A stretch of DNA of 40,000 nt, from positions 21,515-61,514 of the forward strand of contig NZ_JACJRV010000002.1 of the NCBI RefSeq assembly GCF_014697475.1. The letters are read 5' to 3'. Shown one piece after another: positions 8,201 to 28,063 of the stretch; within the stretch, counting starts at the first letter, position 1; each line of letters opens with the position of its first letter. This stretch comes from Nostoc sp. FACHB-152. Lineage in GTDB: Bacteria; Cyanobacteriota; Cyanobacteriia; Cyanobacteriales; Nostocaceae. The notes beneath the pieces were generated by a model. It saw only the letters and a program-made list of their open reading frames with translations, made no database searches and was not told the DNA's origin. Position numbers and translations under genes: made by a program.

Positions 8201-8227
8201 AAGGTGGGAAAGACCCACCTTTTTTTA
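8201..8227 (+). terminator. Rho-independent terminator
   Basis: AAGGTGGG-aaaga-CCCACCTT (perfect 8-bp stem) followed by a T6-7 run. Confidence 0.85.
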
Positions 8228-8275
8228 TGTGATTCGATTAATATCGTGTTCGGGAAGCGGTGTATCATTAAAGCC

Positions 8276-8310
8276 GCAGGGGAGCAGGGGTGCAAGGGTG
8301 CAGGGGAGAG
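8276..8310 (+). repeat. G-rich octamer tandem repeat (GCAGGGGW x4)
   Basis: GCAGGGGA GCAGGGGT GCAAGGGT GCAGGGGA GAG, giving four G3-4 tracts spaced by 4-5 nt. Confidence 0.7.
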
Positions 8311-8362
8311 TGTTTTTACGGTTTCTGCACAGATACACTCAACTATAACTAATCATCCAAAC

Positions 8363-8635
8363 CTCATTAAAGAAGCTCAAAGGTTCATTAAAGGAGTTCC
8401 AAGCCTCATTAATGAAGCTCAAAAGTTCATTAAAGGAGTTCTGAACCTCATTAAAGAAGCTCAAAGGTTCATTAAAGGAGTTCCAAGCCTCATTAAAGAA
8501 GCTCAAAGGTTCATTAAAGGAGTTCAAAGGCTCATTAAAGAAGCTCAAAGGTTCATTAAAGGAGTTCAAAGGCTCATTAAAGGAGTTCAAAGGCTCATTA
8601 AAGAGGCTCAAATACTCATTAATGAGGATTAATTG
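8363..8635. repeat. 13 x 21-bp strictly phased tandem array (two alternating unit types)
   Basis: Units start at 8363 + 21n with no indels. Type A is CTCATTAAAGAAGCTCAAAGG; type B is TTCATTAAAGGAGTTC[C/A]AAG[C/G]. The last units decay (CTCATTAATGAGGATTAATTG). Confidence 0.9.
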
Positions 8636-8636
8636 C

Positions 8637-9113
8637 TCATGAATCAGAAGCAACTTTATTTGGTCTACCTTTGATAGCTTTGAAGCGTTCGCCTAATTGT
8701 TCAGCTAGAGTTTTTAAGCCGGGAGTAGTTTTTGATGCTGTCTTAACGTAATTATAGACAGTTAAACTGCTGGACATAGCTTCACTACCGACTGCCAGTA
8801 AAGTATCATCTACTTGTTCAGTGAGTTGCCGCATGGAAATTAATACTTCAGTAAGTGCGATCGCTAACTGATAATCTTGTACCAACTCTTCAACGTTAAA
8901 AGTAGCCGGCAGAATATTACGGTTAGACTGAGCAGCAGTAGCACTATTATTTACAAAAGCCAGACTTTTATCACCCATCTTGACCATCTTGCGCCGTTCT
9001 TCCGCGCTGAGAGTAACCAGAAAAGGGAGTTTTGCATGGATAGTCTGGAGTGAAGCTTTAATTTCTTGGATATCTGCTGGCGAAAGGGAAGCGGTAATAT
9101 TTTGATAGGACAT
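8637..9113 (-). CDS. Conserved hypothetical protein (158 aa)
   Basis: Helical-looking ORF with an LPFLVTLSAEERRKMVKMGDKSLAFV motif that I recognise only as a recurrent hypothetical family. Last gene of the minus-strand string. Confidence 0.6.
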   Translation of the reverse strand: MSYQNITASLSPADIQEIKASLQTIHAKLPFLVTLSAEERRKMVKMGDKSLAFVNNSATAAQSNRNILPATFNVEELVQDYQLAIALTEVLISMRQLTEQVDDTLLAVGSEAMSSSLTVYNYVKTASKTTPGLKTLAEQLGERFKAIKGRPNKVASDS

Positions 9114-9203
9114 AGTAGAATCACCAATGTAACGCGAGGGTTAAGTAGCAATATTTGCTAAGTATATAATTCCCATTGGTGAGCGTAAAAGCACACAATT
9201 ACC

Positions 9204-9647
9204 CTACTTATTTATCCGTTTTAACGCCGATGCTGAGGGATACTGACCAGATAAAATCAAAGCTTGTCTTTCAATTACTCTTTCATCGACATTAAAATCG
9301 AAAATGCGGGCTGTTACTTCTCCAATTTCTGTTAGCGGTTGAATCAAAGCCTCATCTAACCAAAAATGCTCTCCCCAAAAGTCTCGACGGGGGTTAAAAA
9401 ATCGTACAAGTTCACCAGTCTGCCAATTAATTGAACCTAAATCCGTCCCTTTTTGCAAGTTGCAGAATATACAGGCATAGCAAAGATTATCTGCTGTTGT
9501 TGCACCGCCGTGTTTCACACTGATGATATGGTCAACTTGACAACCTGATGACCTATCGGCTTCAGAAACAAGACAATATTCGCAAATATGATCAGCGCGA
9601 CGAGCAACTAAACGCCGCAGTTCTGCATTAATTTAAGGAATAGACAC
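9204..9647 (-). pseudogene. HNH endonuclease interrupted by an early in-frame TAA
   Basis: The minus frame reads (GTG 9647) VSIP-TAA(9633-9635)-INAELRRLVARRADHICEYCLVSEADRSSGCQVDHIISVKHGGATTADNLCYACIFCNLQKG... This is a full HNH/CxxC core. The track ORF (9204-9518) starts after the first catalytic His. Confidence 0.6.
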
Positions 9648-9656
9648 TGGAAAAAC

Positions 9657-9911
9657 TTACTCCGCCTTAAGGTATTGATGTGCTTTTGCTTTTGCTAAGG
9701 TCATAATATGTTCTAACGTGAGGAAATGATCTAACTCCTTCTTTTCCTCTGGTGTGAGTTTGCCCATTTTGTGTTGATAAACCAAATATTCTAAACGCTC
9801 TTTTGTACTATCTGAAAGCTGAGACTTCACAACACTTTCGGGAGTAGTCCCAGCCGCAATAAAGTCAACAATTTCGTCGTAGACTTTGGCTGTATTTATG
9901 GATGTAGTCAT
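9657..9911 (-). CDS. Small helical protein (84 aa), usual upstream partner of this HNH type
   Basis: The ORF ends 9 nt before the HNH GTG. The LTPEEKKELDHFLTLEHIMTLAKAKA motif is common in small cyanobacterial ORFs. Confidence 0.55.
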   Translation of the reverse strand: MTTSINTAKVYDEIVDFIAAGTTPESVVKSQLSDSTKERLEYLVYQHKMGKLTPEEKKELDHFLTLEHIMTLAKAKAHQYLKAE

Positions 9912-9932
9912 GAATTTACCTGTTTAATTTTA

Positions 9933-10157
9933 TTATGCTACTTTTAATGGCTTGCCTAAAGTTTGAGGCTCTGGTAAAGTTTCGCCATCTGCCAAAGCAG
10001 ATTCAATGAGCATTTCTAAAACTTCCTGAGCATTTTTTAAAGCTTCCTCGTAAGAATCCCCGTGTGTACAAGGCTGCATTACATTAGTAAATTCAGGCAA
10101 CAAAACCACATAACATTTGTCTTCATCTGACCATTGAATAATAATTGTGTATTTCAT
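9933..10157 (-). CDS. hicB: HicB-family antitoxin
   Basis: 74 aa. MKYTIIIQWSDEDKCYVVLLPEF...GDSYEEALKNAQEVLEMLIE is the HicB N-terminal (UPF0150) fold signature. ATGA overlap with hicA. Confidence 0.8.
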   Translation of the reverse strand: MKYTIIIQWSDEDKCYVVLLPEFTNVMQPCTHGDSYEEALKNAQEVLEMLIESALADGETLPEPQTLGKPLKVA

Positions 10158-10378
10158 TCTTCTGTCTCCTCCGCTTTTTCTATTTTCTCTAATTCTGCAA
10201 GTGCTTCATTAACTTGCTTTTCTAAATAAGGTTTAGCATCGCTACCATCTTTACCAGCGATGATGATAGCTTGAGGCAATAGCGGATGTATCCATTTACT
10301 ATGACTACCTTTGGCAGGTTGATAAGTAAACCCTGCTTGCAGCAATAACCTTTTGAGTTCTCTAATTTTCTTGGGCAT
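10154..10378 (-). CDS. hicA: HicA-family mRNA-interferase toxin
   Basis: 74 aa. IRELKRLLLQAGFTYQPAKGSHSKWIHP...IAGKDGSDAKPYLEKQV matches the HicA pattern (GSH motif). Starts 15 nt after the NACHT gene stop. Confidence 0.8.
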   Translation of the reverse strand: MPKKIRELKRLLLQAGFTYQPAKGSHSKWIHPLLPQAIIIAGKDGSDAKPYLEKQVNEALAELEKIEKAEETEE

Positions 10379-10393
10379 AACCTCAGTTTATGT

Positions 10394-13300
10394 TCACCCT
10401 TGCCACCGTTTCAACTGTTTTTGAGCATATTCCCTTACTTGCTCATCTGGGTCATTTTCGGCGCGATCGCGCAACAGTGGTAAAGTTTTGGGATGCTGAG
10501 GAAATTGCTTAAAAATTATCTCCAATGCAACGCGCCGAGGGTTTGGGTTATACGATTCATGTTTACCTTCAAAGAGGTCATCTTTAGCACAGTTGTAGTA
10601 AACATCAAACAGTTCAGACTGATATTTGTAAACTTGAGCTAATTGTTGCACTGCTGTCCCTCGCACATCAGAATCTTCATCCGCACTCGCCAGTTGGCGC
10701 AACAGAGTTTTGGTATCGGGGTCTTCCTTGTAAACTTGAGCTAATTGTTGCACTGCTGTCGCTTGCACAACCGAATCTTCATCCGCACTCGCCAGTTGGT
10801 GCAGGAGAGTTTTGGTGTCGGGGTCTTCCTTGTAAACTTGAGCTAATTGTTCCACTGCTGTCTGTTGCACAACCGAATCTTTATCCGCACTCGCCAGTTG
10901 GCGCAACAGAGTTTTGGTATCGGGGTCTTCCTTGTAAACTTGAGCTAATTGTTGCACTGCTGTCCTTCGCACATAGGAATTTTTATCTGCATTCACCAGT
11001 TCTTGTAGAAAAGTTTTGGTATCGGGGTCATCCTTGTAAGCTTGAGCTAATTGTCGCACTGCTGTCATTTGCACAATCGAATCTTTATCCGCACTCGCCA
11101 GTTGACACAGGAGAGTTTTGGTGTCGGGGTCATCCTTGTAAGCTTGAGCTAATTGTCGCACTGCTGTCGCTTGCACAATCGAATCTTTATCCGCACTCAC
11201 CAGTTGACACAGGAGAGTTTTGGTGTCGGGGTCATCCTTGTAAGCTTGAGCTAATTGTCGCACTGCTATCATTTGTACAACCGAATCTTTATCTGCACTC
11301 ACCCGTTCGTGCAGCAGAGTTTTAGTATCGGGGTCATCTTTGTAAACTTGAGCTAGTTGTTGCACTGCTGTCTGTCGAACATAGGAATCTTTATCCGCAC
11401 TCGCCAGTTCGCGCAGGAGAGTTTTGGTATCAGGGTCTTCCTTGTAAACTTGAGCTAATTGTTCCACTGCTGTCCATCGCACATAGGAATCTTCATCCGC
11501 ACTCGCCAGTTGACGCAACAGAGTTTTGGTGTCGGGGTCATCTTTGTAAACTTGAGCTAATTGTTCCACTGCTGTATCTCGCACATCCGAATCTTTATTC
11601 GCAGTCGCCCATTGGCGCAGCAGAGTTTTAGCTGAATCTTGCCAAGTCGAAGTAATTGCAATAACTGCTTGAGTGCGAATTTCTCGAACTAACTGAGTTT
11701 CTTTGTGATTCCGCCCAGAGTCGTAATAATACCAAAGGTCATATTGAGTTAAGTTTTTTAATCTGTTGAGTAACTTATCAACTGACTTAATTACTGAGCA
11801 ATTTCTTACTTCTGTAAGACACTTAGCTGCTAAAAACAGATTAATAAACTTTTCCTCTTCACCATCCAGCGACATTAAATAATCAATAATGTCGCCAACA
11901 AATTCTTCCTCAATCATCCCAGCAATTAGCAGTAATACTTCATGCCACTTTTCATCTTGCCAGTGTTTGCCAAAAACATCTGTTTTTATTGCTTCTATAG
12001 TTAAACCATTTGCAGTTCCTCTTTTCTCAAACTGCTTAACAAACTCCCATGCACAAAAATACTCTAAAAATGTCCGATGCACAAAAGCATAATAATCAGC
12101 ACCCAAGAAACATAAAATAAAGTTGCGCTCCCTTAATTGCTCAATCAGCAAGCGTGCTATTTTTATTTCTGAGGTAACTCTCCGTTCTCGTAAATAGCTA
12201 ATTAAAGTTTCTTCTAACTCATCTTTACTAATTAGGTTCCCTGCTAAACCTGTCTCTGCTGCCTGCATTTTATAAGCAACCTGGCGTAACATTGCCTGTT
12301 TATCTTTCAAGTCAATTGTGTAAGGATCTATATCAGAAAATCTGAGTAATTTTGCTTCTACATCCCATTGATGTAATAGTACTCGTGATGCTTGTTCGTA
12401 AAGCGTAACTCTATCTCTAGGCAATTCCTGATTACGATTGAGAATTGCCATCATCGTCAACAGCAGAGGATTTCCTGCTAGTTCAGTAATAGCTTTGGAA
12501 TTCTCAATTCCTCTTTGCAGCCTTTCCCGTTTTCTAATTTTATCCGCTTCATCACTAAAAGTTAATTCATGCCAACGGTGAATAAAATTTTGAATTTGTT
12601 CTGAGTCCAAATCTTGCAATTCAAAATGGTGAAACTCAGCATCGCGTAAGCGTTGCATTTTATAGCCAATTTTACGAGAAGTTACAATCACCTGGACATT
12701 AGGATAGTCATTAGTAAAGCGATGAATATCAGTAATCACATCCTCTCGCTTACCATGATCAAATACTTCATCTAAACCATCAAACATCACGACAGCGTTA
12801 CCAGCTTTTAACTGTTCGTGAATTTTATGTTGATTTAAGTGGGTAACTACTCCGCTACATTTATGGAAAAATTCTAAAAAATTATGACATTCTTTATCCT
12901 CGCGTCGTCGCATATAAGTGCGTAACTCAATTAGCAACGGTATTGGTAATGAGATAACATTATCTACTGGTGATTCTGCCCAATTCAAAGTTAAATATTG
13001 CAATAATGTAGACTTACCCGAACCAGGATCACCCAAAATTACAATATATTTATAAGTCGTCTTGTCATTAACAACATCTAATACAGAACGTATCGGTTGC
13101 TCTAAATAAACTCGTTTATAACGTTCTAATTCCTCTGCTTGAATTTCTGCTTCTATTTGGTCACTCTCCCGCAATCTTTTTAAATGTTCTTTTGGCAGTT
13201 CATGAACTTGGTGCAAAACTTGATGCACCTCCCGCACATTTTGAGCAATAAACATTCGCCATAACTTCAGTTCGTTATAGGCATAACCGCTAGTGTCTAA

Positions 13301-13930
13301 ACTATCTAACTTCAGATTGCCGTAGCGTTCGCGGATGGATTCTTGATATTGTTGTAAATCAAACTCAGGAATAATACCCGCTATTTCTTTTGTATATCCC
13401 TTGGTTTGTTCTAGATTTTTAGAATCAAAAGTTTCTCTGAGTTCTGGTAATTCATGAATAATATTTTTAACCTTCTGCACATATTTCTTACCTACCCGTT
13501 TCCAATTAAAATCATCTGGTAACGGGTAGGATGAATTAAGCTCATACCAAATTTCTTCTAATCTTTTTGTGTCTACAGTCTGACAGTCATTCTGAAAGGC
13601 ATTACCTAAAATTTCTTTAACTTGTGAGTTCTTTAAAAATTGCTTTAGTCTTGGGGTATATTTTTTAATTTCATCTTCAGGAAGTTCACTGTCATCTAAA
13701 TCCTGCTGCATTAGTTCTAAATATTCTGTAACTGCCATAACAGCAGCTTTCTGAAGCGGTTCTTGCTTGAAACGTTCAGTTAGAGCAATATTAAAAGTAT
13801 TTTTGAAAAAATCTTTAGTATAGTCTTTGACGAAATCTTTGACAAACTCTTCGTTGATGATTGTTTTCACCAAAAAGCCTGCTGTTTTTGTTGCTATCCA
13901 AGTGGCAACCCATTCAAATATCATACTCAT
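10394..13930 (-). CDS. STAND NTPase: unknown N-terminal domain + NACHT + 10 HEAT-like repeats
   Basis: 1178 aa. Walker A GDPGSGKST (aa 300-308, nt about 13007-13033), Walker B VVMFDGLDEV. The helical NACHT-associated region is followed by ten 34-aa units D-TKTLL-x3-[AV]SAD-x-DS-x-V-x3-AV-x-QLAQ-x-YK-x-DP. The first 25 aa are hydrophobic (MSMIFEWVATWIATKTAGFLVKTII). Confidence 0.9.
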   Translation of the reverse strand: MSMIFEWVATWIATKTAGFLVKTIINEEFVKDFVKDYTKDFFKNTFNIALTERFKQEPLQKAAVMAVTEYLELMQQDLDDSELPEDEIKKYTPRLKQFLKNSQVKEILGNAFQNDCQTVDTKRLEEIWYELNSSYPLPDDFNWKRVGKKYVQKVKNIIHELPELRETFDSKNLEQTKGYTKEIAGIIPEFDLQQYQESIRERYGNLKLDSLDTSGYAYNELKLWRMFIAQNVREVHQVLHQVHELPKEHLKRLRESDQIEAEIQAEELERYKRVYLEQPIRSVLDVVNDKTTYKYIVILGDPGSGKSTLLQYLTLNWAESPVDNVISLPIPLLIELRTYMRRREDKECHNFLEFFHKCSGVVTHLNQHKIHEQLKAGNAVVMFDGLDEVFDHGKREDVITDIHRFTNDYPNVQVIVTSRKIGYKMQRLRDAEFHHFELQDLDSEQIQNFIHRWHELTFSDEADKIRKRERLQRGIENSKAITELAGNPLLLTMMAILNRNQELPRDRVTLYEQASRVLLHQWDVEAKLLRFSDIDPYTIDLKDKQAMLRQVAYKMQAAETGLAGNLISKDELEETLISYLRERRVTSEIKIARLLIEQLRERNFILCFLGADYYAFVHRTFLEYFCAWEFVKQFEKRGTANGLTIEAIKTDVFGKHWQDEKWHEVLLLIAGMIEEEFVGDIIDYLMSLDGEEEKFINLFLAAKCLTEVRNCSVIKSVDKLLNRLKNLTQYDLWYYYDSGRNHKETQLVREIRTQAVIAITSTWQDSAKTLLRQWATANKDSDVRDTAVEQLAQVYKDDPDTKTLLRQLASADEDSYVRWTAVEQLAQVYKEDPDTKTLLRELASADKDSYVRQTAVQQLAQVYKDDPDTKTLLHERVSADKDSVVQMIAVRQLAQAYKDDPDTKTLLCQLVSADKDSIVQATAVRQLAQAYKDDPDTKTLLCQLASADKDSIVQMTAVRQLAQAYKDDPDTKTFLQELVNADKNSYVRRTAVQQLAQVYKEDPDTKTLLRQLASADKDSVVQQTAVEQLAQVYKEDPDTKTLLHQLASADEDSVVQATAVQQLAQVYKEDPDTKTLLRQLASADEDSDVRGTAVQQLAQVYKYQSELFDVYYNCAKDDLFEGKHESYNPNPRRVALEIIFKQFPQHPKTLPLLRDRAENDPDEQVREYAQKQLKRWQG
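10627..11646 (-). repeat. 10 x 102-bp in-frame tandem repeat inside the NACHT gene
   Basis: Units begin (forward strand) TGTAA[A/G]CTTGAGCTA[A/G]TTG at 10627, 10729, 10831, 10933, 11035, 11137, 11239, 11341, 11443 and 11545. The period is an exact 102 nt. Confidence 0.9.
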
Positions 13931-14050
13931 GTCTGCTTATACGTTAATTACGAGTATATCCACCAGTTTTAGTAGCTATTGCCTAACTTAGGATAAGTTA
14001 ATCTCAGTGATAAAATTGCTACAGTTTCCGCTTATGCTACAACAACCAGA

Positions 14051-14854
14051 GTGAAAACAGACAGCATCTTTTATCGCCTATTTCAAGAATTACCCAGCAT
14101 TTTCTTTGAATTAATTGGCAACCCTCCCGAAACTGCAAATACCTATCAATTTTCTTCAGTTGAAATCAAACAAACAGCCTTTAGAATTGATGGTGTATTT
14201 CTGCCAACCCAAGATGAACAAAGCCTAATTTATTTTGTCGAAGTTCAATTTCAACCTGACTCAGATATTTACTTGCGCCTGTTGTCAGAAATCTTTTTGT
14301 ACTTACGCCAAAATAAACGCCCAAACTCTTGGCGAGGCGTGGTGATTTATCCTAGCCGAAACATAGATATTGGTGAACGCCAAGATTGCTATGAGTTTTT
14401 TAATAGCGATCGCATCAGTATAATCTACTTAGATGAATTAGCTGAAATTGCATCACTGCCCATAGGTATCGCTACCATCAAATTAATAATTGAAGATAAA
14501 GAGACAGCCATTTCCACCGCCAAACAATTAATCAACCGCACCAAGCAAGCAGTAAATTCGCAACTTCCACAAAAACAACTACTAGAATTAATAGAGACAA
14601 TCCTAGTTTACAAATTGCCTAACATCAGTCGAGAGGAGATAGAAGCAATGTTTGGGTTAAGTGAGTTAAAGCAAACACGAGTTTATCAAGAAGCTGAACA
14701 AGAAGGTAAAGAGAAAGGACGTTTAGAAGCAAAATTAGATGCTGTACCTAAACTGTTAGCATTGGGTTTGACTGTGGAACAGATAGCACAGGCTTTAGAT
14801 TTAGATGTTGCACAAGTTCAGCAAGCAGCAAAGCAGACATCACCAGAGCAGTAA
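14051..14854 (+). CDS. Rpn-family recombination-promoting nuclease / putative transposase (DUF2887/DUF4351 type)
   Basis: 267 aa, GTG start. MKTDSIFYRLFQELPSIFFELIG...EIKQTAFRIDGVF...YFVEVQFQ (PD-(D/E)XK-like core), with a C-terminal QTRVYQEAEQEGKEKG...LGLTVEQIAQALDL tail. Confidence 0.75.
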   Translation: MKTDSIFYRLFQELPSIFFELIGNPPETANTYQFSSVEIKQTAFRIDGVFLPTQDEQSLIYFVEVQFQPDSDIYLRLLSEIFLYLRQNKRPNSWRGVVIYPSRNIDIGERQDCYEFFNSDRISIIYLDELAEIASLPIGIATIKLIIEDKETAISTAKQLINRTKQAVNSQLPQKQLLELIETILVYKLPNISREEIEAMFGLSELKQTRVYQEAEQEGKEKGRLEAKLDAVPKLLALGLTVEQIAQALDLDVAQVQQAAKQTSPEQ

Positions 14855-14866
14855 AAAAATATTTCT

Positions 14867-15592
14867 ATGGTTCTACAAATTCAACCCAGTCAAAAAAAAC
14901 CTAATGTCAGTTGGGAACCACTTCCAGCCGACTTTATTTTATCTGACGACCCAGTGGAAAATATTCAGCAACCAACTCTCGCCGCAGCACTTACCGATGC
15001 TTTGGGTGCTAACGGACGCATCCAACCCCAAATGCTTATAGGCTCTAATTTTGGTCTAGTCGCTACAATTAACAAAAAAATTGTCGTCAAAGCACCTGAC
15101 TGGTTTTACGTCCCGCAAGTGCAACCTCTAGCCGCCGATGTTATTCGTCGTAGCTACACCCCCAATTTAGAAGGTGATGCTGTGGCTGTGGTAATGGAAT
15201 TTCTCTCAGAAACCGAAGGTGGAGAATTATCTATTCGCTCAACGCCACCCTACGGTAAACTTTATTTTTACGAAAAAATTCTCCAGGTTCCAACTTATGT
15301 CACTTACGACCCATACGTACCAAGTTTAGAAGTACGCATCTGGCAAAATGAACAATATACTTTACAGTCAGCAGATGCAAATGGCCGTTTTTGGATTCCT
15401 GAATTAGAGTTATTTCTGGGAATTTGGCAAGGTGAAAGACTCTGCCAAACTATAAACTGGCTGAGGTGGTGGGATAGCGAAGGAAATCTGCTGTTGTGGA
15501 GTAGTGAACAAGCCCAACAAGAACGCCAACGTGCTGAAAGATTAGCAGCTAAGTTACGCGAACTCGGTGTTGACCCTGATGCGATCGCCTAA
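14867..15592 (+). CDS. Uma2-family (DUF820) endonuclease
   Basis: 241 aa. APDWFYVP...AVVMEFLSET...YEKILQVPTYVTYDP, with the common C-terminal ERQRAERLAAKLRELGVDPD tail. Confidence 0.8.
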   Translation: MVLQIQPSQKKPNVSWEPLPADFILSDDPVENIQQPTLAAALTDALGANGRIQPQMLIGSNFGLVATINKKIVVKAPDWFYVPQVQPLAADVIRRSYTPNLEGDAVAVVMEFLSETEGGELSIRSTPPYGKLYFYEKILQVPTYVTYDPYVPSLEVRIWQNEQYTLQSADANGRFWIPELELFLGIWQGERLCQTINWLRWWDSEGNLLLWSSEQAQQERQRAERLAAKLRELGVDPDAIA

Positions 15593-15661
15593 CCAAAATG
15601 AAGACAATAATTAACTATACTTACCCGAAACAGTAGCAATTCACTGTTTGCTGAAAACGAG

Positions 15662-16552
15662 ATGCGGCTGAAGACAGGGAAACAGCACCCAAATTCCATG
15701 AAACAGCAAAAAAATCAATTCAGCCATCTCACAGCAATAGACAGAACTTACCTCTCATTTCCCGCAAAGTTTTTACTAAATCAAAACTTTCTGCAAGGTA
15801 AAATCCTAGATTTTGGTTGTGGTCTTGGTAATGATGTTAAATTATTACGTCAAAAAGGCTTTGATATCACAGGTTATGATCCCTATTACTTTCCCCAATA
15901 TCCTACTGATAAATTTGACACTATAATTTGCTTTTATGTTTTAAATGTCTTATTCCCTGAAGAACAAGCTAATGTGCTGATGGCAGTAGCACATTTATTA
16001 AAACCAGGTGGTAAAGCTTATTTTACTGTCAGAAGGGATATCAAAAAAGAAGGCTTTCGAGAACACTATGTCCATAAAAAGCCTACATACCAATGTAATG
16101 TTAAACTTCCATTTTCTTCAATCTTTCTAGATGAGAGTCGAGAAATATACCAGTATGTTCATTACAATCGTCAGCGCAATTCCTCGAATTACTGTATATT
16201 TTGCAACCCCCACAAAAATCTCAAATTATTAACAGAATCAGCAACAGCATACGCTATATTTGACGGCTATCCTATCAGTAAAGGTCATATTTTAGTCATT
16301 CCTAAACGTCATGTAAGTAATTATTTTGAACTCCCATTCAAAGAACAATCAGCTTGTTGGTTGATGGTGAACAAAGTACAAGAAATTCTCAAAGCAGAAT
16401 TTGCCCCCGATGGCTTTAATGTCGGGATGAACATTAACCGAGAAGCTGGGCAAAATATTATGCACGCCAGCATTCATATCATTCCCCGTTACAAAGGCGA
16501 CACGCCCTGTGCGAAAAGTGGCATCAGAACTGTCATTCCTAAACAGAAATAG
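15662..16552 (+). CDS. Fusion protein: class I SAM-dependent methyltransferase + HIT-family domain
   Basis: 296 aa, one continuous frame. N-terminal half has ILDFGCGLGNDV (motif I) and LLKPGGKAYF. C-terminal half has CIFCNP...FDGYPISKGHILVIPKRH...GQNIMHASIHIIPRYKGD (HIT fold; triad reads H-A-S-I-H). Alternative start at ATG 15698. Confidence 0.75.
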   Translation: MRLKTGKQHPNSMKQQKNQFSHLTAIDRTYLSFPAKFLLNQNFLQGKILDFGCGLGNDVKLLRQKGFDITGYDPYYFPQYPTDKFDTIICFYVLNVLFPEEQANVLMAVAHLLKPGGKAYFTVRRDIKKEGFREHYVHKKPTYQCNVKLPFSSIFLDESREIYQYVHYNRQRNSSNYCIFCNPHKNLKLLTESATAYAIFDGYPISKGHILVIPKRHVSNYFELPFKEQSACWLMVNKVQEILKAEFAPDGFNVGMNINREAGQNIMHASIHIIPRYKGDTPCAKSGIRTVIPKQK

Positions 16553-16564
16553 TTATAGCAACTG

Positions 16565-17515
16565 TCACCTGTCACCTGCTATGGCGATCGCAATTTTACC
16601 AACCGCTCGTTCACTCTCACTATAAGCATGAGCCGCAGCTAATTCTTGTAGTGGAAAAGTCCGGTCAATGACTGTGCGAATTTTACCAGCCTCAATCAAG
16701 TCTTTTAAATAAATCAAGTCTTGGCTATTTGGTCTTTCAACTACTAATTTCGCTTTTTGACCAGGTAAAAACGTTGTTAAAAAACCCTGTATTAAAACTT
16801 CTGGGCTAGGCAAAGTTGTTACATAAACTCCATTTGGTGTCAGCACTTCTCTACAGGTAGAAAATGCTCGTTTGGCAACTGTATCAAAAATAATGTCATA
16901 CTTTATTGCCTCTGTGGTGAAATCTTGCTGCGTATAATCAACAACGCGGTCTGCGCCTAAAGATTTAACAAAATCTAGATTTTTGGTACTGCAAACTCCC
17001 GTTACTTCCGTCCCCAAAGCCTTAGCAATTTGCACTGCAAATATACCCACGCCACCCGCAGCACCATTAATCAAAACTGTCTGTCCAGCTTGCATATTTC
17101 CCAAATCACGTAAAGCTTGCAAAGCCGTCAGCGCTGCTAAAGGTACGGTGGCTGCTTCTTCATAGCTCAAATTTGTTGGTTTGAGTGCTGCCACCTTTTC
17201 TGGAATTGCTGCAAATTCTGCATAAGCACCGCCAGGAAAGCTAGTGCTACCGTAAATCGCATCTCCAGGTTGAAAGCGAGTGACTTGGGAACCAACACTT
17301 ACCACTTCTCCCGCCACATCAAACCCCAAAATCAATGGGAAACTTCTACCAGTCAACACACTCAACATACCCTTACGAATCTTCCAATCAACGGGGTTAA
17401 CGCTGCTGGCGTGGACTTTCACTAGTAATTGGTCAGGCTTGATTTGCGGCTGCTTCCAATCTTCATACTGCAAAACATCAGTGGTTCCATAGCCTCGGAT
17501 AATGACTGCCTTCAT
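16565..17515 (-). CDS. NADPH:quinone oxidoreductase / zinc-type alcohol dehydrogenase-like (MDR family)
   Basis: 316 aa. MKAVIIRGYG...VKVHASSVNPVDWK...INGAAGGVGIFAVQIAK (Rossmann GxGxxG). Confidence 0.85.
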   Translation of the reverse strand: MKAVIIRGYGTTDVLQYEDWKQPQIKPDQLLVKVHASSVNPVDWKIRKGMLSVLTGRSFPLILGFDVAGEVVSVGSQVTRFQPGDAIYGSTSFPGGAYAEFAAIPEKVAALKPTNLSYEEAATVPLAALTALQALRDLGNMQAGQTVLINGAAGGVGIFAVQIAKALGTEVTGVCSTKNLDFVKSLGADRVVDYTQQDFTTEAIKYDIIFDTVAKRAFSTCREVLTPNGVYVTTLPSPEVLIQGFLTTFLPGQKAKLVVERPNSQDLIYLKDLIEAGKIRTVIDRTFPLQELAAAHAYSESERAVGKIAIAIAGDR

Positions 17516-17923
17516 AGCATTCCTCCTGTAACCCTGTATTGCTTGCCTATATCTTTAGTGTAGCGATCGCCCCCGCTTTGTGACGTAATTAACTTTTTAT
17601 GCTATCTGTTAGATATGCTGCTTTTTGAATATCAAAATATTTTACTTTTTATATAAAAAAATTAATTTTTGCAAATTATATTCATTAATTTTGACACTTT
17701 CCAAAAACTTGAAACCTAACAATAGCATACTCTTCAGTGCGATTTAATCTCATTAAACTTAGAAAACTTAAGAAAATGTGAATTACATTTTTCTCTAAAA
17801 AAAAATGATATGTTGTATACAGAATTGAATTTCGCACGTATCTGGAGTAGTACCAACGAATCTGCTCCAGTTTTTCCCCCTAAATCCTTTAGCCGTCGAG
17901 CTTTTTGGCAGGATTTAAGGGAT

Positions 17924-18136
17924 AGTTGAGTACAACTTTTTGTATCCCCAAATCAGCAGCAAATAGCTTCAAAGCATTGCTGAGATTGGGTTATAGCTGA
18001 GTACAAAGAAATCCTAAACCCCACTCTAAAAATACAAGAACCCTGACCTAAAAATACTAGAACCCCTACCCGAAAATAAAATTTATAAACTTTTTTATAG
18101 CTCAATATCAAGGTTTGCAGATTTGAGTACAAATCT
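17924..18136 (+). promoter_or_regulatory. Candidate nifB upstream control region: 3 x TGAGTACAA and 3 x 22-bp A-tract repeats
   Basis: TGAGTACAA occurs at 17927, 17998 and 18124. The first and third copies are embedded in AGTT-GAGTAC-AACT and AGATTT-GAGTAC-AAATCT. Tandem units AACCCCACTCTAAAAATACAAG / AACCCTGACCTAAAAATACTAG / AACCCCTACCCGAAAATAAAAT lie at 18017-18082. The region is 400-600 nt upstream of nifB. No function demonstrated. Confidence 0.3.
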
Positions 18137-18531
18137 AATAAATCCAATAAATTCTATCCAAATGTAACTCCAGTCGAGCTAAAAAACGGCTGCTATAAAT
18201 CATATATCGCCAATCACCAATGACTCGAAACAAAACAACGAGCCAAAAGTGAGTGGAGGGATGAGATAGCACCATGCCTCGGTGAATCGAAGTCGCGGCT
18301 GTACACACCAACTCTACCCAAAACCTCAAAGTTGACACACACCAGCCGAAACACAAGGATTCATAGCCTGCCATCATCAGCGAAGTTGCCCAACCAGTGG
18401 CTTTGCTACAACCAAAGGATGCACTCCTGCGGGCAGTGTGATAGCCGTGACTTCCATTCTACTAGGGCAAATAAAATAGCAACAGCATCTCCCACAGTGG
18501 CAGCTTAGTCCACCGACATTTGCGAAATTCA

Positions 18532-19980
18532 ATGACACCACAGGTTACAGACTCCTCCGTTACTGAATCGACACCTACCCAAGCAAAATCTGGTGGTTGC
18601 GGATGCGACAGCAAAAGCAGCGCCACCGTGGAAATGGACGAAAAGCTCCAAGAACGTATTGCTAAACATCCCTGCTACAGCGAAGAAGCTCACCACCATT
18701 ACGCGAGAATGCACGTTGCAGTTGCACCCGCTTGCAACATTCAATGCAACTATTGCAACCGCAAATATGACTGCGCCAACGAAAGTCGCCCTGGTGTAGT
18801 GAGCGAGTTACTGACACCGGAAGAAGCAGCACACAAAGCGTTGGTTATCGCAGGCAAAATTCCCCAAATGACAGTTTTGGGAATCGCTGGCCCTGGCGAC
18901 CCTCTAGCCAACCCAGACAAAACATTCCGCACCTTTGAGTTGATTGCAGACAAAGCACCAGATATTAAGCTTTGCTTATCAACTAATGGTTTGATGCTAA
19001 CTGAATACATCGATCGCATTAAACAATTAAATATAGATCACGTTACTATCACCCTAAATACCATCGACCCAGAAATCGGCGCGCAGATTTACTCATGGGT
19101 TCACTATAAGCGCAGACGTTACAGAGGTGTTGAAGGAGCCAAAATTCTGCTCGAAAAGCAGTTAGAAGGTTTACAAGCTCTGAGAGAAGCCGATATTCTG
19201 TGCAAGGTCAACTCCGTGATGATTCCCGGAATCAACGACCAGCACCTAGTTGAAGTCAACAAAGCAATTCGTGAGCGTGGTGCATTCTTGCACAACATCA
19301 TGCCTTTGATTTCTGCACCAGAACACGGTACACACTTCGGCTTAACAGGTCAGCGAGGCCCTTCACAAAAAGAACTCAAATCAGTTCAAGACCAGTGTGC
19401 TGGCAACATGAAAATGATGCGCCACTGCCGTCAATGCCGTGCAGATGCGATTGGTTTGTTGGGTGAAGACCGCAGCCAAGAATTCACCAAAGAGAATTTC
19501 TTGGAAATGGCTCCAGAGTACGACTTCAGCAAGCGCCAAGAAGTTCACGAAGGTATTGAGAAATTTAGAGAAGAAATTAAAGCAGCCAAAGAAAAGGCAA
19601 AAGCCGGCAAGCAGCAAAGTGCCAACAATCCTAAAATCTTAGTTGCAGTGGCAACCAAAGGCGGCGGATTAGTTAACCAACACTTCGGTCATGTCAAAGA
19701 ATTCCAAGTTTACGAAGTTGATGGTAGCGAAGTTCGTTTCGTTAGTCACCGCAAGATTGATCAATATTGTCAAGGTGGATACGGTGAAGCTGCCACCGCA
19801 GAGAATATCATGAAGACAATTGCAGATTGTAAAGCAGTATTGGTTTCTAAGATTGGCAACTGTCCCAAAGAAAAATTGCACGAAGCTGGCATACAGACCG
19901 TTGAAGCTTACGACGTAATCGAGAAAGTTGCTTTAGAGTTTTACGAACAGTACGTCAAAGAATTAGGGAATCGGGAATAG
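18532..19980 (+). CDS. nifB: Nitrogenase FeMo-cofactor biosynthesis radical-SAM protein NifB (with C-terminal NifX-like domain)
   Basis: [14 protein letters not shown] radical-SAM motif. The C-terminal roughly 110 aa resembles NifX/NafY. ATG 18532 is preferred over the track's TTG at 18520. Confidence 0.97.
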
Positions 19981-20107
19981 GGAATAGGTTACAGGGAACA
20001 GGTTACAGGTTACAGGAAATAGATTACAGATAATTTTCTATCTCCTGTCGCCTGTCACCTCTCACCTATCACCTCTCCCACTCCCTACTCACAACTCCCC
20101 ACTCCCA
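19978..20107. repeat. STRR block pair (G-rich GGTTACA heptamers, then complementary C-rich block) between nifB and fdxN
   Basis: TAGGGAATAGGTTACAGGGAACAGGTTACAGGTTACAGG...CCTGTCGCCTGTCACCTCTCACCTATCACCTCTCCCACTCCC. The two halves are imperfectly complementary. Confidence 0.8.
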
Positions 20108-20128
20108 TCATTCGCAAGGAGAATAATC

Positions 20129-20479
20129 ATGGCTTATAAGATTACCAGCCAGTGTATTTCTTGCAATCTCTGTGATTCTGTATGCCCCACCGGAGCAATT
20201 AAAAAAGTAGAAGGCTCAAGCTACTGGATTGATCCTGAACTTTGCACAAACTGCGTTGGCACTATTTACTCCGTGCCTCAATGCAAAGCTGGTTGCCCAA
20301 CCTGTGATGGTTGCGTTAAAGAGACAAACGATTATTGGGAAAGCTGGTTTGCTAAATATAACCGCGTTGTCGGGAAATTAACAAAAAAACAAGATTATTG
20401 GGAACGTTGGTTTGACTGTTATTCTCAGAAGTTCTCTGAACAAATGCAAAAGCATCAGGGTGAAATATTAGGGGTATAA
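20129..20479 (+). CDS. fdxN: 2[4Fe-4S] bacterial-type ferredoxin FdxN (uninterrupted)
   Basis: 116 aa. CISCNLCDSVCP and CTNCVG...C...CP cluster motifs. Position between nifB and nifS. Confidence 0.9.
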   Translation: MAYKITSQCISCNLCDSVCPTGAIKKVEGSSYWIDPELCTNCVGTIYSVPQCKAGCPTCDGCVKETNDYWESWFAKYNRVVGKLTKKQDYWERWFDCYSQKFSEQMQKHQGEILGV

Positions 20480-20485
20480 ATAAGA

Positions 20486-21688
20486 ATGAGCGTCATTTAT
20501 CTAGATAATAATGCGACTACTAAGGTAGACCCACAGGTTTTAGAGGCAATGATGCCCTATTTAACCGAATATTACGCCAACCCCTCAAGTATGCACACCT
20601 TTGGCGGGCAACTGGGTAAAGCAGTGAAAACAGCCAGGGAACAACTAGCCGCCCTCCTCGGTGCAGATGAATCAGAAATTGTTTTTACGAGTTGTGGAAC
20701 CGAGGGAGATAACGCAGCCATTCGCGCCGCTTTGTTAGCCCAGCCAGAAAAACGCCACATCATCACCACCCAGGTAGAACATCCGGCGGTGCTGAATGTC
20801 TGCAAACAACTAGAAACCCAAGGTTATAGTGTTACTTATCTTTCGGTGAATAGTCAGGGGCAGTTGGATTTAGATGAATTAGAAGCCTCGCTGACTGGGA
20901 ACACCGCCTTGGTAAGCATCATGTATGCTAACAACGAAACAGGTACGATTTTCCCGATTGAGCAGATTGGATTACGTGTCAAAGAACGCGGCGCACTGTT
21001 CCATGTCGATGCAGTGCAAGCAGTGGGTAAAATTCCCCTGAACATGAAGACCAGTACAGTAGATATGTTAACTATGTCTGGTCATAAGATTCACGCACCC
21101 AAAGGTATTGGCGCGTTGTATGTGCGCCGGGGCGTGAGATTCCGTCCCCTGTTGATTGGTGGACACCAAGAACGCGGTCGCCGCGCGGGTACAGAGAATG
21201 TTCCGGGTATCGTTGGTTTGGGTAAAGCAGCCGAATTGGAATTGCTGCATTTAGAAGAAGCAACTACCAGAGAAAGAAAGTTGCGCGATCGCCTGGAACA
21301 AACTCTCCTCGCTAAAATCCCTGATTGTGAAGTTAACGGCGATCCCAAAAATAGATTGCCCAACACCACCAACATCGGTTTTAAATATATCGAAGGTGAA
21401 GCAATCCTACTTTTGTTAAATAAACACGGTATCTGTGCCTCATCTGGTTCCGCTTGCACCTCCGGTTCACTCGAACCATCCCACGTTCTGCGGGCAATGG
21501 GTTTACCATACACAACCTTACATGGTTCCATTCGCTTCAGTCTTTCTCGCTACACCACCGACGCTGAAATTGATCGCGTCATTGAAGTCATGCCCGACAT
21601 TGTAGAACGTCTCCGCGCTCTGTCGCCATTCAAAAACGACGACGCAGGTTGGTTGCAATCTCAAGAACAAACATTGGCACATCGTTAA
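20486..21688 (+). CDS. nifS: Cysteine desulfurase NifS
   Basis: 400 aa. PLP-lysine motif SGHKIHAPKG and active-site SSGSACTSG. Confidence 0.96.
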   Translation: MSVIYLDNNATTKVDPQVLEAMMPYLTEYYANPSSMHTFGGQLGKAVKTAREQLAALLGADESEIVFTSCGTEGDNAAIRAALLAQPEKRHIITTQVEHPAVLNVCKQLETQGYSVTYLSVNSQGQLDLDELEASLTGNTALVSIMYANNETGTIFPIEQIGLRVKERGALFHVDAVQAVGKIPLNMKTSTVDMLTMSGHKIHAPKGIGALYVRRGVRFRPLLIGGHQERGRRAGTENVPGIVGLGKAAELELLHLEEATTRERKLRDRLEQTLLAKIPDCEVNGDPKNRLPNTTNIGFKYIEGEAILLLLNKHGICASSGSACTSGSLEPSHVLRAMGLPYTTLHGSIRFSLSRYTTDAEIDRVIEVMPDIVERLRALSPFKNDDAGWLQSQEQTLAHR

Positions 21689-21689
21689 T

Positions 21690-21733
21690 TAGGGAATAGG
21701 TTACAGGGAACAGGTTACAGATAGTTTCTATAG
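21690..21733. repeat. STRR module identical to the one after nifB
   Basis: The 31 nt TAGGGAATAGGTTACAGGGAACAGGTTACAG at 21690-21720 are identical to 19978-20008. The tail ATAGTTTCTATAGCCTGTCACC is related to 20030-20060. Confidence 0.85.
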
Positions 21734-21875
21734 CCTGTCACCCTTCGGGTTCGCCACTTGCTTTATGCCGGGAAACCCGTCCACCGCAGTGGTCTCACCT
21801 GTCACCTATCACCCTTCGGGTTCGCCACTTGCTTTATGCCGGGAAACCCGTCCACCGCAGTGGCTCACCTGTCAC
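21734..21875. repeat. Tandem duplication (about 71 bp x 2) of an SDR-like nested hairpin element
   Basis: CCT[G/A]TCACCCTTCGGGTTCGCCACTTGCTTTATGCCGGGAAACCCGTCCACCGCAGTGG(T)CTCACCTGTCACCT occurs twice, starting at 21734 and 21805. Inner stem CGGG-AAA-CCCG. Confidence 0.85.
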
Positions 21876-21904
21876 CTCTCTCCACTCAGCATTCGGAATT
21901 TAAT

Positions 21905-22825
21905 ATGTGGGACTACACAGATAAAGTATTAGAACTGTTTTACGATCCCAAGAATCAGGGAACGATTGAAGAAACCAGCGAACCTGGAGTTAAGGTTGCA
22001 ACAGGAGAAGTCGGCAGTATTTCTTGCGGCGATGCTTTGAGACTGCACCTAAAAGTCGAAGTGGAATCTGATAAGATTCTCGATGCACGTTTCCAAACCT
22101 TTGGCTGTACCAGTGCGATCGCTTCTTCTAGTGCATTGACCGAAATGGTTAAGGGTTTAACTTTAGATGAAGCCCTGAAGGTATCTAATAAAGATATTGC
22201 CAATTACCTCGGCGGTTTACCCGAAGCCAAAATGCACTGCTCAGTTATGGGTCAAGAAGCCTTAGAAGCCGCAATTTATAACTATCGTGGCATTCCTCTA
22301 GCTGCCCATGACGATGATGACGAAGGCGTTTTAATTTGCTCCTGCTTTGGTATTACTGATACAAAAATTCGTCGCGTAGTGAAAGAAAATAATCTTACTA
22401 CTGCGGAGCAGGTAACAAATTATGTCAAAGCTGGTGGCGGATGCGGTTCCTGTTTAACAAAAATTGATGATATTATTAAAGATGTAGAGCAGGAAGTCGC
22501 CACAACCAGTAAAAACGCAAATAACGGCATAAAGTCAGCAGAAATTCTTAACTCTGGTCAGATAGCTACAGCCACAAGACCACTGACCAACGTCCAAAAG
22601 ATTGCCTTAATTCAAAAAGTTCTCGACGAAGAAGTAAGACCCGTCCTCATTGCTGATGGTGGAGATGTAGAACTGTACGACATAGAAGGAAATACAGTTA
22701 AAGTCATCCTCAAAGGTGCTTGTGGTTCTTGTTCTAGCAGCACCGCCACCTTAAAGATAGCGATTGAATCGAGACTGCGCGATCGCATCAGCAAAGACAT
22801 CGTAGTACAAGCAGTTGAGCTATAG
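21905..22825 (+). CDS. nifU: Fe-S cluster scaffold NifU
   Basis: Starts [19 protein letters not shown]. IscU-like Cys motifs ([20 protein letters not shown]), central 2Fe-2S CSC...GGGCGSC, and C-terminal GACGSCSSS. The track's longer ORF (from TTG 21758) only reads through the SDR repeat. Confidence 0.95.
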
Positions 22826-23020
22826 CTCTTAGTTTTACCCACAGTATAAATACACCCTAATGTGCAACAGCCAAGAACAGAAAGTAGGATTTGACCGATA
22901 CAATTGTTCTCTCATCAATGTTTTATTCCTACTGACAACAAACAGCTAACAGCACATAGGCAAAGATATTCAACGCCTACCTGCAATTTCAATATCCAAC
23001 ACGCTTCAAAGGAAAAGGAT

Positions 23021-23380
23021 ATGAGTGCAACATTGTATGACAAACTCGGCGGACAACCGACTATTGAGAAAATAGTTGATGATTTACACAAACGCATCTT
23101 AGCAGACAACACTCTCAAACCATTTTTCGCTAACACAGATATGGCGAAACAGCGCGCTCATCAAGTTGCTTTCTTCTCTCTGATATTTGAGGGGCCAAAG
23201 CAATACACTGGTCGCCCAATGGACAAAACACACACAGGTATGAGTCTACAGGAACAACACTTTGATGCGATCGCCAAGCACCTAACTGATGCTATGGCTG
23301 TAGGTGGAGCATCAGCAGAAGATACCAAAGCAGCGTTAGATCGCGTTTCCAGCTTGAAGGGAGCTATTTTGAACAAGTAA
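23021..23380 (+). CDS. glbN: Group I truncated hemoglobin (cyanoglobin)
   Basis: 119 aa from ATG 23021. MSATLYDKLGGQPTIEKIVDDLHKRI...FFSLIFEGPKQYTGRPMDKTHTGM...HFDAIAKHL is very similar to the GlbN I recall from Nostoc commune. Same nifU-nifH position. Confidence 0.9.
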   Translation: MSATLYDKLGGQPTIEKIVDDLHKRILADNTLKPFFANTDMAKQRAHQVAFFSLIFEGPKQYTGRPMDKTHTGMSLQEQHFDAIAKHLTDAMAVGGASAEDTKAALDRVSSLKGAILNK

Positions 23381-23479
23381 TGGAACTGACGCATTGATTA
23401 TTGACTAATAGCTAAGTCAAGTCTTACCTAGCGTTCCCAGTTTCTCCAGATTATGGCGTATTTGTAAAGTGTGTAATTC

Positions 23480-23612
23480 CTTTGTCATTTGCATAAAACA
23501 CAAATGGCAAAGATTAAACAAAATTTTAACCCCGAATCATTATGACACCAACACCCACTGATTTTGCTGTAGAGCGATCGCCCCCGACGTGTGCCTAAGC
23601 GATCGTTCTACA
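23480..23612 (+). promoter_or_regulatory. Two stem-loops in the nifH leader region
   Basis: CTTTGTCATTTG-cataaaaca-CAAATGGCAAAG (23480-23512, one mismatch). TAGAGCGATCG-N19-CGATCGTTCTA (23570-23610), 92-132 nt upstream of the nifH ATG. Confidence 0.35.
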
Positions 23613-23689
23613 AACCCCTCACAGCCATAGCTCAACAGGCGTGAGATTCTCAAACAAACGCTCATACCCACTAAACCAACCAATTGTAG

Positions 23690-24589
<900 letters not shown>

Positions 24590-24735
24590 ATAATCCTGTT
24601 AGGAGATAAGGAAAGTTTGAAGTGCGAAGTATAAAGCCTGAAATCATCTCTTCATCCAGCTTTAGCTTTCAACCTTCATCCTTCTCCTCTCCCTCATCCC
24701 TTTTCCCCCATCCATAACTGTTACCGAGGCAGACT

Positions 24736-26229: not shown

Positions 26230-26257
26230 TTCATTCCCAAGAATAAAACGGATAGCC

Positions 26258-26278
26258 TGGGGTTTTTAGCCCCAGGAA
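26258..26278 (+). other. Intercistronic stem-loop after nifD
   Basis: CCTGGGG-tttttag-CCCCAGG. Followed by GAATGCT heptamers and complementary ATTCAT[T/G/C] heptamers (26290-26345). Confidence 0.4.
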
Positions 26279-26436
26279 CCCAGGGAAGAATGGTGAATGC
26301 TGAATGCTGGATGAAGACTTTTATTCATTATTCATGATTCATCACTCGTGACTCCCTAGGGGAGGAGCGGAACCCCCCCAGGCTCTCCCAACACTTCAAT
26401 TACTACACCAACCAGCAAGCGTAGAGAGACAGACAA

Positions 26437-27975: not shown

Positions 27976-28017
27976 AAATTACGCTCCAAGCTTGTTTGTT
28001 AAAAACAGCTAAAGATT

Positions 28018-28063
28018 AGGAACTGGGGACTAGGGAATATTTAATTCCCCATCCCCAATTCCT
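28018..28063. repeat. STRR-type hairpin after nifK
   Basis: AGGAACTGGGGACTAGGGAAT-attta-ATTCCCCATCCCCAATTCCT (imperfect 20-21-bp stem). Confidence 0.7.

Follow-up and report, generated by a model that had tools for sequence, protein, structure and literature searches.

The systems closest to the locus described here are the fungal NOD-like receptors (NLRs) with repeats of high internal conservation (HIC), known from Podospora as the HET-E/HET-D/NWD proteins with WD40 repeats, NLRs with ANK or TPR repeats, and one NACHT/HEAT gene, Pa_6_7270 (PMC4986451). Homogenised repeats diversified at a few contact residues are the means by which fungal NLRs gain new recognition specificities fast. Here, we describe a comparable gene in a 40-kb stretch of Nostoc sp. 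FACHB-152 (hereafter the window; all coordinates are window positions). The gene (10394..13930, minus strand) encodes a protein of 1178 amino acids (aa) with the domain order NNH2-NACHT-HEAT, a bacterial NLR-like member of the signal transduction ATPases with numerous domains (STAND), as concluded from its open reading frame (ORF) and its Pfam domains. Its repeat array is, in our assessment, probably the C-terminal sensor of this ATPase, with a diversified surface carried by a homogenised scaffold. The likeness to the fungal proteins extends to the general build, in which highly similar repeats form a C-terminal array behind a NACHT or NB-ARC switch, to polymorphism in repeat number, to concerted evolution by unit shuffling, and, at the level of the family, to positive selection on few surface positions. 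The differences are that the Nostoc array is bacterial and built from a short PBS/alphaRep-like HEAT unit, that HET, HeLo or PNP_UDP domains occupy the N-terminus in fungi whereas the Nostoc protein carries NNH2, and that allorecognition phenotypes are known from the fungal side only.

Bacterial relatives have been described as well. Kibby et al. (10.1101/2022.07.19.500537) catalogued bacterial NACHT proteins (bNACHTs) with NNH N-termini and with HEAT or other repeat C-termini of the "antigen receptor-type", several bNACHTs being defenders against phage. As far as the accessible text of that study goes, these proteins resemble the Nostoc protein in their tripartite NNH-NACHT(D[GAS]hDE)-repeat build and in being enriched, in multiple copies, in filamentous cyanobacteria; the defenders tested were mostly proteins with a short C-terminus (clade 14), assayed in E. 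coli, and the same text holds no analysis of internal repeat conservation or per-position hypervariability of HEAT arrays. Dyrka et al. (10.1101/2020.01.06.895854) reported WD40 and TPR units of 80-90% identity in NLRs of multicellular bacteria and predicted their rapid diversification; that work concerns WD and TPR arrays only and left selection untested, whereas here the arrays are of the HEAT type, and both the ratio of non-synonymous to synonymous substitution rates (dN/dS, or omega) and concerted evolution were measured. No paper on repeat hypervariability of the cyanobacterial NACHT-HEAT family was found in the searchable literature, which is absence of evidence only. The regime itself is familiar from fungal NLRs, and WD/TPR NLRs of bacteria have been noted to show it; it is no new principle.

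Variation within the repeat array

The array consists of ten HEAT-like units of 34 aa, or 102 bp (aa 767-1106; 10613..11632, minus strand), with unit 1 at 11531-11632 and unit 10 at 10613-10714, as delimited by Pfam, repeat finding and a unit profile. At 10626-11629, Tandem Repeats Finder returned a period of 102 with 9.8 copies, free of indels and with 86% matches, and a DNA profile of the 102-bp unit detected exactly ten copies in the 40 kb, all of them within the array. These results confirm the initial annotation, made by reading the letters and their translations, in its claim of ten tandem 102-bp units in perfect register; the interval that it gave, 10627-11646, denotes the same array, but is displaced by 14 nt and out of codon register.

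The units had been called near-identical, with differences confined to a few fixed positions, and both descriptions proved too strong. Any two units share 76-96% of their nucleotides and 56-94% of their residues (mean 75%), only 6 of the 45 pairs reach 85% or more at the protein level, and 20 of the 34 positions vary somewhere in the array, the other 14 being invariant. Several states are found at positions 19 (seven residues), 16 (four), 6 (four) and 23 (three), while no other variable position holds more than three residues or more than two inferred changes, and several deviate in an edge unit only. Variable sites had been noted by eye at about 6-9, 13, 16-20 and 24. The clustering was recovered, and the residues listed for the 16-20 block, from DVRDT in the first unit to DVRGT in the last, are exact; however, the site taken as 24 is really 23 (E, Q or R, next to an invariant Q24), position 17 is constant, position 20 changes once, and positions 28 (V/A) and 31 (D/E), which also vary, had been left out. 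At the DNA level, the 20 nt following GCACTGCTGT, proposed as the variable window, are indeed the densest stretch, holding 36 of 104 mismatches to the consensus (35%) in 20% of the unit, although not the sole cluster, as a second one occupies codons 6-10.

To count changes, a minimum-spanning-tree/Nei-Gojobori scheme was used, which is crude, treats arrays as independent and is not a recombination-aware likelihood model. In the window array, it yielded a minimum of 35.5 non-synonymous against 15.5 synonymous changes. Codons differ in their load of non-synonymous changes by more than chance would give (index of dispersion 2.0, permutation p = 0.001), and at least seven such changes fall at position 19 (p = 0.002). 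Variation is therefore neither mostly synonymous nor evenly spread, the two patterns that the initial annotation had named as incompatible with its interpretation.

The stretch comes from a draft assembly, so short-read collapse or chimeric joining might also have shaped how many units there are, their order or their sequence. No independent contig with the exact protein was found in the contig index, and fungal arrays of such type need long reads (PMC12222747). Moreover, short-read assemblies often break in such repeats, with at least nine related draft contigs ending inside arrays (L010, L020, L029, L034, L056, L057, L058, L063 and L074), and for this reason unit counts from metagenome-assembled genomes need care. 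In the window array, however, exact repeats reach 82 bp at most, and every longer k-mer (83 bp or more) is single, so that reads of at least 100 bp can order the units. In addition, the ORF is intact with no indels, every unit is unique, ten units fall within the family mode of 10-12, and the same architecture is present in the complete or nearly complete chromosomes AP018318, OY970166 and AP018194. An assembly artefact is thus judged very unlikely.

Selection on the units and homogenisation of the scaffold

A set of sites picked post hoc from the window array (6, 16, 18, 19 and 23) gave an omega of 3-3.7, but such a choice is circular and was dropped. It was replaced by an a-priori set, unit positions 15, 16, 19, 20, 23 and 27, taken from the artificial alphaRep proteins, and by arrays other than that of the window. 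These were 31 arrays with at least 65% internal identity, drawn from 80 loci fetched from GTDB genomes, with the window array excluded. Over the alphaRep set, they show 461 non-synonymous against 55 synonymous changes (omega 2.2, binomial p = 1.6e-9), and at positions 16, 19 and 23 the counts are 273 against 12 (omega 5.3, p = 4.8e-14). The rest of the unit has an omega of 0.65-0.71, and helix-A positions 4, 7, 8 and 11 one of 0.93. The fivefold excess at 16, 19 and 23 is robust to the crude counting scheme. Relatives are also diversified at 13-15, 20 and 27. In locus L035, which lies on a complete chromosome and in which the profile counts 16 units (14 were analyzed), variation touches 17 of the 102 nucleotide columns and is almost restricted to codons 13-16 and 19-20, whereas in L002 eleven units are 96% identical, their interior differences falling at positions 8 and 19.

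The window array taken by itself would be compatible with a neutral origin, that is, with a tandem expansion kept by recombination, in which the variable sites are the least constrained surface of a structural or scaffolding HEAT domain. Here, the alphaRep set shows 13.5 non-synonymous against 2.5 synonymous changes (omega 1.5; p = 0.28 for omega > 1), the rest of the unit 22 against 13 (omega 0.52; heterogeneity relative to the set, p = 0.10), and the array as a whole has an omega of 0.69; as the changes total 51, the elevated ratio at the set is suggestive, not significant. Surface positions of any solenoid tolerate change, and Q18, R23 and A28 co-occur in the neighbouring units 4-6, which indicates one inherited unit lineage rather than independent variation per site. 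A neutral by-product is nevertheless hard to reconcile with the other 31 arrays, where omega exceeds 1 at p of about 1e-9 over a set fixed beforehand, and where other exposed positions (2, 13, 24, 30 and 31) fall short of such values. Furthermore, the scaffolds of L035 and L002 show no differences, synonymous sites included, and change is seen in codons 13-16 and 19-20. The array is also joined to a NACHT domain, and in characterised relatives the repeats C-terminal to this switch are sensors. On balance, we regard the neutral explanation as unlikely. The localised selection put forward in the initial annotation thus stands at the level of the family, where dN/dS above 1 is significant, and not for the window array alone.

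Evidence for homogenisation came from the orthologues. All 120 homologues are NNH2-NACHT-HEAT proteins of filamentous cyanobacteria; their length changes in steps of about 34 aa, they carry 6-20 units, and their mean internal identity is 71%. Many of the loci share the neighbours adh, methyltransferase-HIT, Uma2, nifB and o158, and are therefore positional orthologues. In the comparison of orthologues that the initial annotation had called for, repeat count and variable residues differ: the syntenic ones possess 8-16 units with unrelated 16/19/23 triads. The closest, the nifB-linked locus L001 of Nostoc sp. HK-01, has 11 units instead of 10 and is 81.5% identical in the protein flanks, yet its units show no unit-to-unit correspondence with those of the window, except for the terminal unit. 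Repeat number is hence polymorphic between lineages, from HK-01 to the family as a whole. Between-unit synonymous divergence (dS) is 0.25 in the window array and 0.10 in HK-01, as compared to 0.33 for the non-repeat flanks of the two genes. Between 4 and 11 scaffold differences are fixed array-wide relative to most compared arrays, among which are several syntenic orthologues, and only one relative to L001. At the DNA level, 64 of 76 units are closest to another unit of the same array.

Because differences are fixed across arrays, interior units lack one-to-one orthology, and within-array dS is lower than flank dS, the scaffold looks as expected after homogenisation, through either unequal crossing-over or gene conversion, a process that also alters unit number between lineages. 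The array thus evolves in concert as HIC repeats do, and the claim that recombination homogenises the scaffold was borne out. The ends of the repeat region, in turn, escape homogenisation and are conserved as ordinary orthologous sequence. At the N-terminal side, a degenerate capping HEAT-like helix pair, ETQLVREIRTQAVIAITSTWQDS (aa ~742-766; 11633..11707, minus strand), recognised from its sequence and from a predicted helix at 742-762, stands outside the homogenised array. At the C-terminal side, sequence and structure prediction delimit a tail of two divergent HEAT-like units (NPRRVALEIIFKQF...; KTLPLLRDRAENDPDEQVREYAQKQLKRW; 10397..10612, minus strand), which acts as a C-cap outside the array; the tail is conserved among orthologues, with 89% aa identity to Nostoc HK-01, and has a weak match to the hidden Markov model of the unit at aa 1150-1171.

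Two further observations concern the same genes. Between a window unit and an HK-01 unit dS is 0.20, lower than the flank value of 0.33, with about 24 synonymous sites per unit; this may reflect sampling noise, constraint on repeat DNA, or exchange between arrays. In addition, the family is present in multiple copies: FACHB-152 encodes a further NNH2-NACHT-HEAT paralogue, P0073 (54% identity, 12 units), and several other genomes hold at least two copies (locus pairs L004/L019, L008/L025, L045/L062 and L022/L057).

Targeted mutagenesis, by a diversity-generating retroelement (DGR) or by silent donor cassettes, would be another way of creating variable codons, and DGRs are reported to act in this way on the sensors of STAND-type conflict systems of multicellular bacteria (PMC10907252). 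In the 40-kb window, however, there is no extra copy of the unit that could serve as template repeat or donor cassette, and none of the fifteen other ORFs of at least 250 aa encodes a reverse transcriptase. Moreover, the variable codons (GAT, TGG, CAG, ATG, GCG, AGG and GGG) show no adenine-specific pattern, and the fold is HEAT, not C-type lectin or FGS. For the window, a DGR-diversified sensor was rejected on the first two grounds, and we assign the idea a practically negligible probability.

Placement of the variable residues and the proposed sensor

To locate the variable residues, AlphaFold2 (AF2) was run on an alignment of 30 sequences. The predicted local distance difference test score (pLDDT) was about 90 throughout the repeats, and lower in the NACHT and linker regions. 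The model contains alternating helices of 13 and 14 residues over aa 768-1117, each unit being laid out as helix A (positions 33-11), a turn (12-14) and helix B (15-28), so the units are predicted to be helix-turn-helix HEAT-like repeats stacked into an alpha-solenoid. A Foldseek search of the PDB retrieved HEAT solenoids (CAND1, condensin, PP2A-A and karyopherins) and, at rank 46 for the full-length model, Avs4 bound to a phage portal (PDB 8dgf). Ranked by sequence, the nearest solved structures are the alphaRep proteins (PDB 4xl5, 3ltj and 4jw2; PMC3754942; best match 4xl5_C, E 3e-8), with which the Nostoc units have the motif D-x-D-x-x-V-R in common. alphaRep is artificial, has units of 31 residues and lacks an NTPase, the Nostoc unit being three residues longer (two in helix A, one in the loop). 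The naturally hypervariable positions that were randomised in the alphaRep library, numbered 18, 19, 22, 23, 26 and 30, align with the six unit positions of the a-priori set, a mapping obtained from the printed alignment and checked against Table 3 of PMC3754942. In crystal complexes, the randomised positions form the concave face that contacts the target (PMC3754942).

On a helical wheel of helix B, positions 16, 19, 20, 23 and 27 fall within +/-60 degrees, with the invariant V17, A21 and L25 opposite, and positions 6, 9, 10 and 13 likewise group on a single side of helix A, with L4, L8 and A11 on the other. Judging from this geometry and from the alphaRep alignment, the variable residues appear to lie on surfaces and not in the buried helix-helix core, where their presence would have spoken against the initial annotation, yet on two faces rather than one. 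Its expectation of a single variable solenoid face accordingly fits 16, 19, 20, 23 and 27, but not 6, 9, 10 and 13 on helix A. Positions 16, 19 and 23 would correspond to the concave, target-binding face of alphaRep.

The initial annotation had also drawn an analogy to transcription activator-like effectors (TALEs), and it could be imagined that the array is a modular code reader of the TALE or PUF kind, the 16/19/23 triad of each unit reading one element of a linear polymer, be it a nucleic acid or an extended peptide. Each unit does contribute one variable triad on a concave helix, both kinds of repeat are helical units of 34 residues that vary at few positions, and there is a weak Pfam match to the DNA-binding, HEAT-like DNA_alkylation family (E 5.7e-6). 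Beyond repeat length, however, the analogy fails. TALEs form a basic superhelix and read DNA base by base through loop residues 12 and 13, whereas the Nostoc variable residues are on a helix face, helix B and not the loop, in an array that is attached to a NACHT domain and acidic (pI 4.68; 58 D+E against 42 K+R), which is unfavourable for nucleic acids. No TALE family is among the Pfam matches of the 1178-aa protein, nor is there a relation to TALEs in sequence or fold, the repeats matching HEAT_2 (PF13646, E 7.7e-70, in seven stretches) and HEAT (PF02985, E 3.8e-14). Finally, the triads of the window array do not draw on a small recurring alphabet, and surfaces of the alphaRep type bind folded proteins. 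A TALE-like or nucleic-acid reading was rejected on the Pfam assignment and the acidic pI, and a modular code of any kind seems to us highly improbable.

The assignment of the array to a STAND sensor also draws on the remainder of the protein, which as a whole matches a "HEAT repeat domain-containing protein" of Nostoc sp. FACHB-152 at 100% identity. Its NACHT NTPase domain (PF05729; aa 295-455; 12566..13048, minus strand) passes the gathering threshold of Pfam (49.3 bits, cut-off 26.7), as is characteristic of NACHT-clade STAND proteins. A motif search located, on the same strand, Walker A of the form GxxxxGK[ST] (GDPGSGKST, aa 300-308; 13007-13033) and Walker B followed by the signature D[GAS]hDE, the NACHT signature as defined in 10.1101/2022.07.19.500537 (DGLDE in VVMFDGLDE, aa 384-388; 12767-12781). 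The switch thus has its nucleotide-binding site intact. The domain is preceded by NNH2 (NACHT N-terminal helical domain 2; PF22734, E 8.9e-62; aa 29-213; 13292..13846, minus strand), presumed to be an effector or adaptor module, and followed by HEAT_2 from aa 771 to about 1100, in the tripartite order of STAND proteins.

Together, these results support the interpretation offered in the initial annotation, namely a diverse, ligand-contacting surface on a homogenised scaffold, serving as the sensor of a STAND protein; that the array is the specificity determinant of the protein, as was also stated, may be inferred by analogy with characterised relatives. In the mechanism that we propose on the same grounds, the helix-B surface would bind a protein as its ligand, which might be foreign (from a phage or another non-self source) or a host protein under guard, and the acidic character of the array argues for a protein over a nucleic acid. 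Binding would release autoinhibition, upon which NACHT would exchange nucleotide and oligomerise, and NNH2, possibly together with the co-located HicA and HNH products, would execute growth arrest or cell death. Avs4 offers a parallel, as it also joins a STAND NTPase to a C-terminal helical-repeat sensor, and its binding of a phage protein leads to oligomerisation (PDB 8dgf). Avs sensors, however, are irregular, TPR-like, and recognise conserved folds, rather than being homogenised arrays with hypervariable residues in each unit, and Avs N-termini are enzymatic effectors.

Besides the low omega of the window array and the linked residues of units 4-6, several findings weigh against the sensor hypothesis. 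The window array does not reach the HIC threshold, set at more than 85% identity between units over at least 100 aa (PMC4986451); some relatives do (L002 with 96%, L035 with 87%), and the window array is a moderate example of a pattern that several relatives display much more cleanly. About one third of its variation lies on the helix-A face (6, 9, 10 and 13), an outer face by the alphaRep alignment, and exposure of the variable sites was deduced from that alignment and helix geometry, not from model coordinates. As to the output, AF2 predicts an all-helical fold for NNH2 (pLDDT 85-95 over aa 60-160), but a fold search against the PDB gave no significant match (best E 0.66), and neither an activity nor a fold relative could be identified by Pfam, AF2 or that search, which makes the output step the weakest part of the model. 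Moreover, PADLOC recognised no known defence system, with matches at the P-loop level only (mad8, 1.8e-4; VakA, 6.5e-3), and the gene occupies a conserved chromosomal position beside the nif cluster, and not one within an obvious mobile defence island. Even so, we hold the sensor hypothesis to be the probable one.

Downstream genes and genomic setting

Downstream of the NLR gene, and like it on the minus strand, lies a cassette of four small genes. The first, hicA (10154..10378), encodes a HicA-family toxin of 74 aa (PF07927, E 6e-11) and is found 15 nt past the NLR stop codon. It overlaps by 4 nt with hicB (9933..10157), whose product is a HicB-like antitoxin, also of 74 aa (PF15919, E 9e-10). 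These are followed by orf84 (9657..9911), for a small helical protein of 84 aa with a weak DUF7667 match, which recurs together with the HNH gene, and by the HNH endonuclease gene itself (9204..9632; PF01844, E 4e-10), a frame of 142 aa from stop to stop and of 104 aa from the first canonical start codon. NCBIfam has no specific family for the NLR protein, hicA, hicB or orf84. In a scan of 8500-14200, no terminator-like site was found and promoter-like sites were at chance level, which means merely that nothing in the scan opposes co-transcription of the NLR gene with hicAB.

The cassette recurs in the family. Among 70 related loci with enough downstream sequence, 35 have at least one cassette gene downstream, on the same strand and within 2.5 kb (hicB in 25, orf84 in 24, HNH in 17 and hicA in 14), whereas only one cassette match lies upstream of an NLR gene. 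The cassette-bearing loci include L001, L002, L005, L026, L048 and L059, as well as loci from the non-Nostocalean genera Potamolinea, Coleofasciculus and Lyngbya. This linkage is partly inherited synteny; its constant orientation across orders suggests a functional connection. The NLR gene, hicA-hicB and orf84-HNH could even form one multi-gene system conserved in filamentous cyanobacteria, in which the HEAT array would be a lineage-specific surface for recognition of phage or of conspecific non-self, to be likened in the latter role to the fungal het loci, with the RNase toxin and the HNH nuclease as executioners. HicA and HNH would then supply the effectors that the enzyme-less NNH2 N-terminus lacks. 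We mention this arrangement only tentatively and consider it quite unlikely in that full form.

The rest of the window is ordinary Nostoc chromosome, with uvrB, an Rpn-family nuclease, Uma2, a methyltransferase-HIT protein, an alcohol dehydrogenase and, from 18.5 kb onward, the nifB-nifS-nifU-nifHDK-nifEN cluster. The NLR gene lies a few kb upstream of nifB and nifSU-HDK-EN (14051-32000; loci L001, L007, L026, L036 and L049). As its neighbours adh, methyltransferase-HIT, Uma2 and o158 are common to many Nostocaceae, the locus appears to be syntenic and vertically inherited. The Rpn-family gene (14051-14854, plus strand), for a recombination-promoting nuclease or putative transposase (DUF2887), is divergent and 120 bp from the NLR start; since it adjoins the NLR gene in only one other related locus (L016), the association is probably incidental. 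Two further repeats were observed in the window. At 8356-8622, a 42-bp unit (21-bp sub-period) is present in 5.9 copies with 92% matches and is open on both strands: the frame at 8204-8632 (plus strand) would encode LIKEAQRFIKGV repeats, the other extends over 8339-8653 (minus strand), and both are only possible coding frames, with weak coiled-coil-like Pfam matches. At 21734-21877, a direct repeat of 71 bp occurs in two copies of 97% identity, which take in the spacer between nifS and nifU as well as the TTG annotated as start codon of the nifU ORF.

Bacterial relatives of NLRs are immune proteins, and the evolution of their sensors has hardly been measured so far. A large family of filamentous cyanobacteria, with many of its copies beside the nif cluster, here shows a regime of the fungal type on a HEAT scaffold. 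Its hypervariable positions are those that engineers randomised in alphaRep, which provides a testable map of the presumed ligand-binding surface. The arrays also constitute a natural specificity library, from which it may be found what cyanobacterial NLRs detect.

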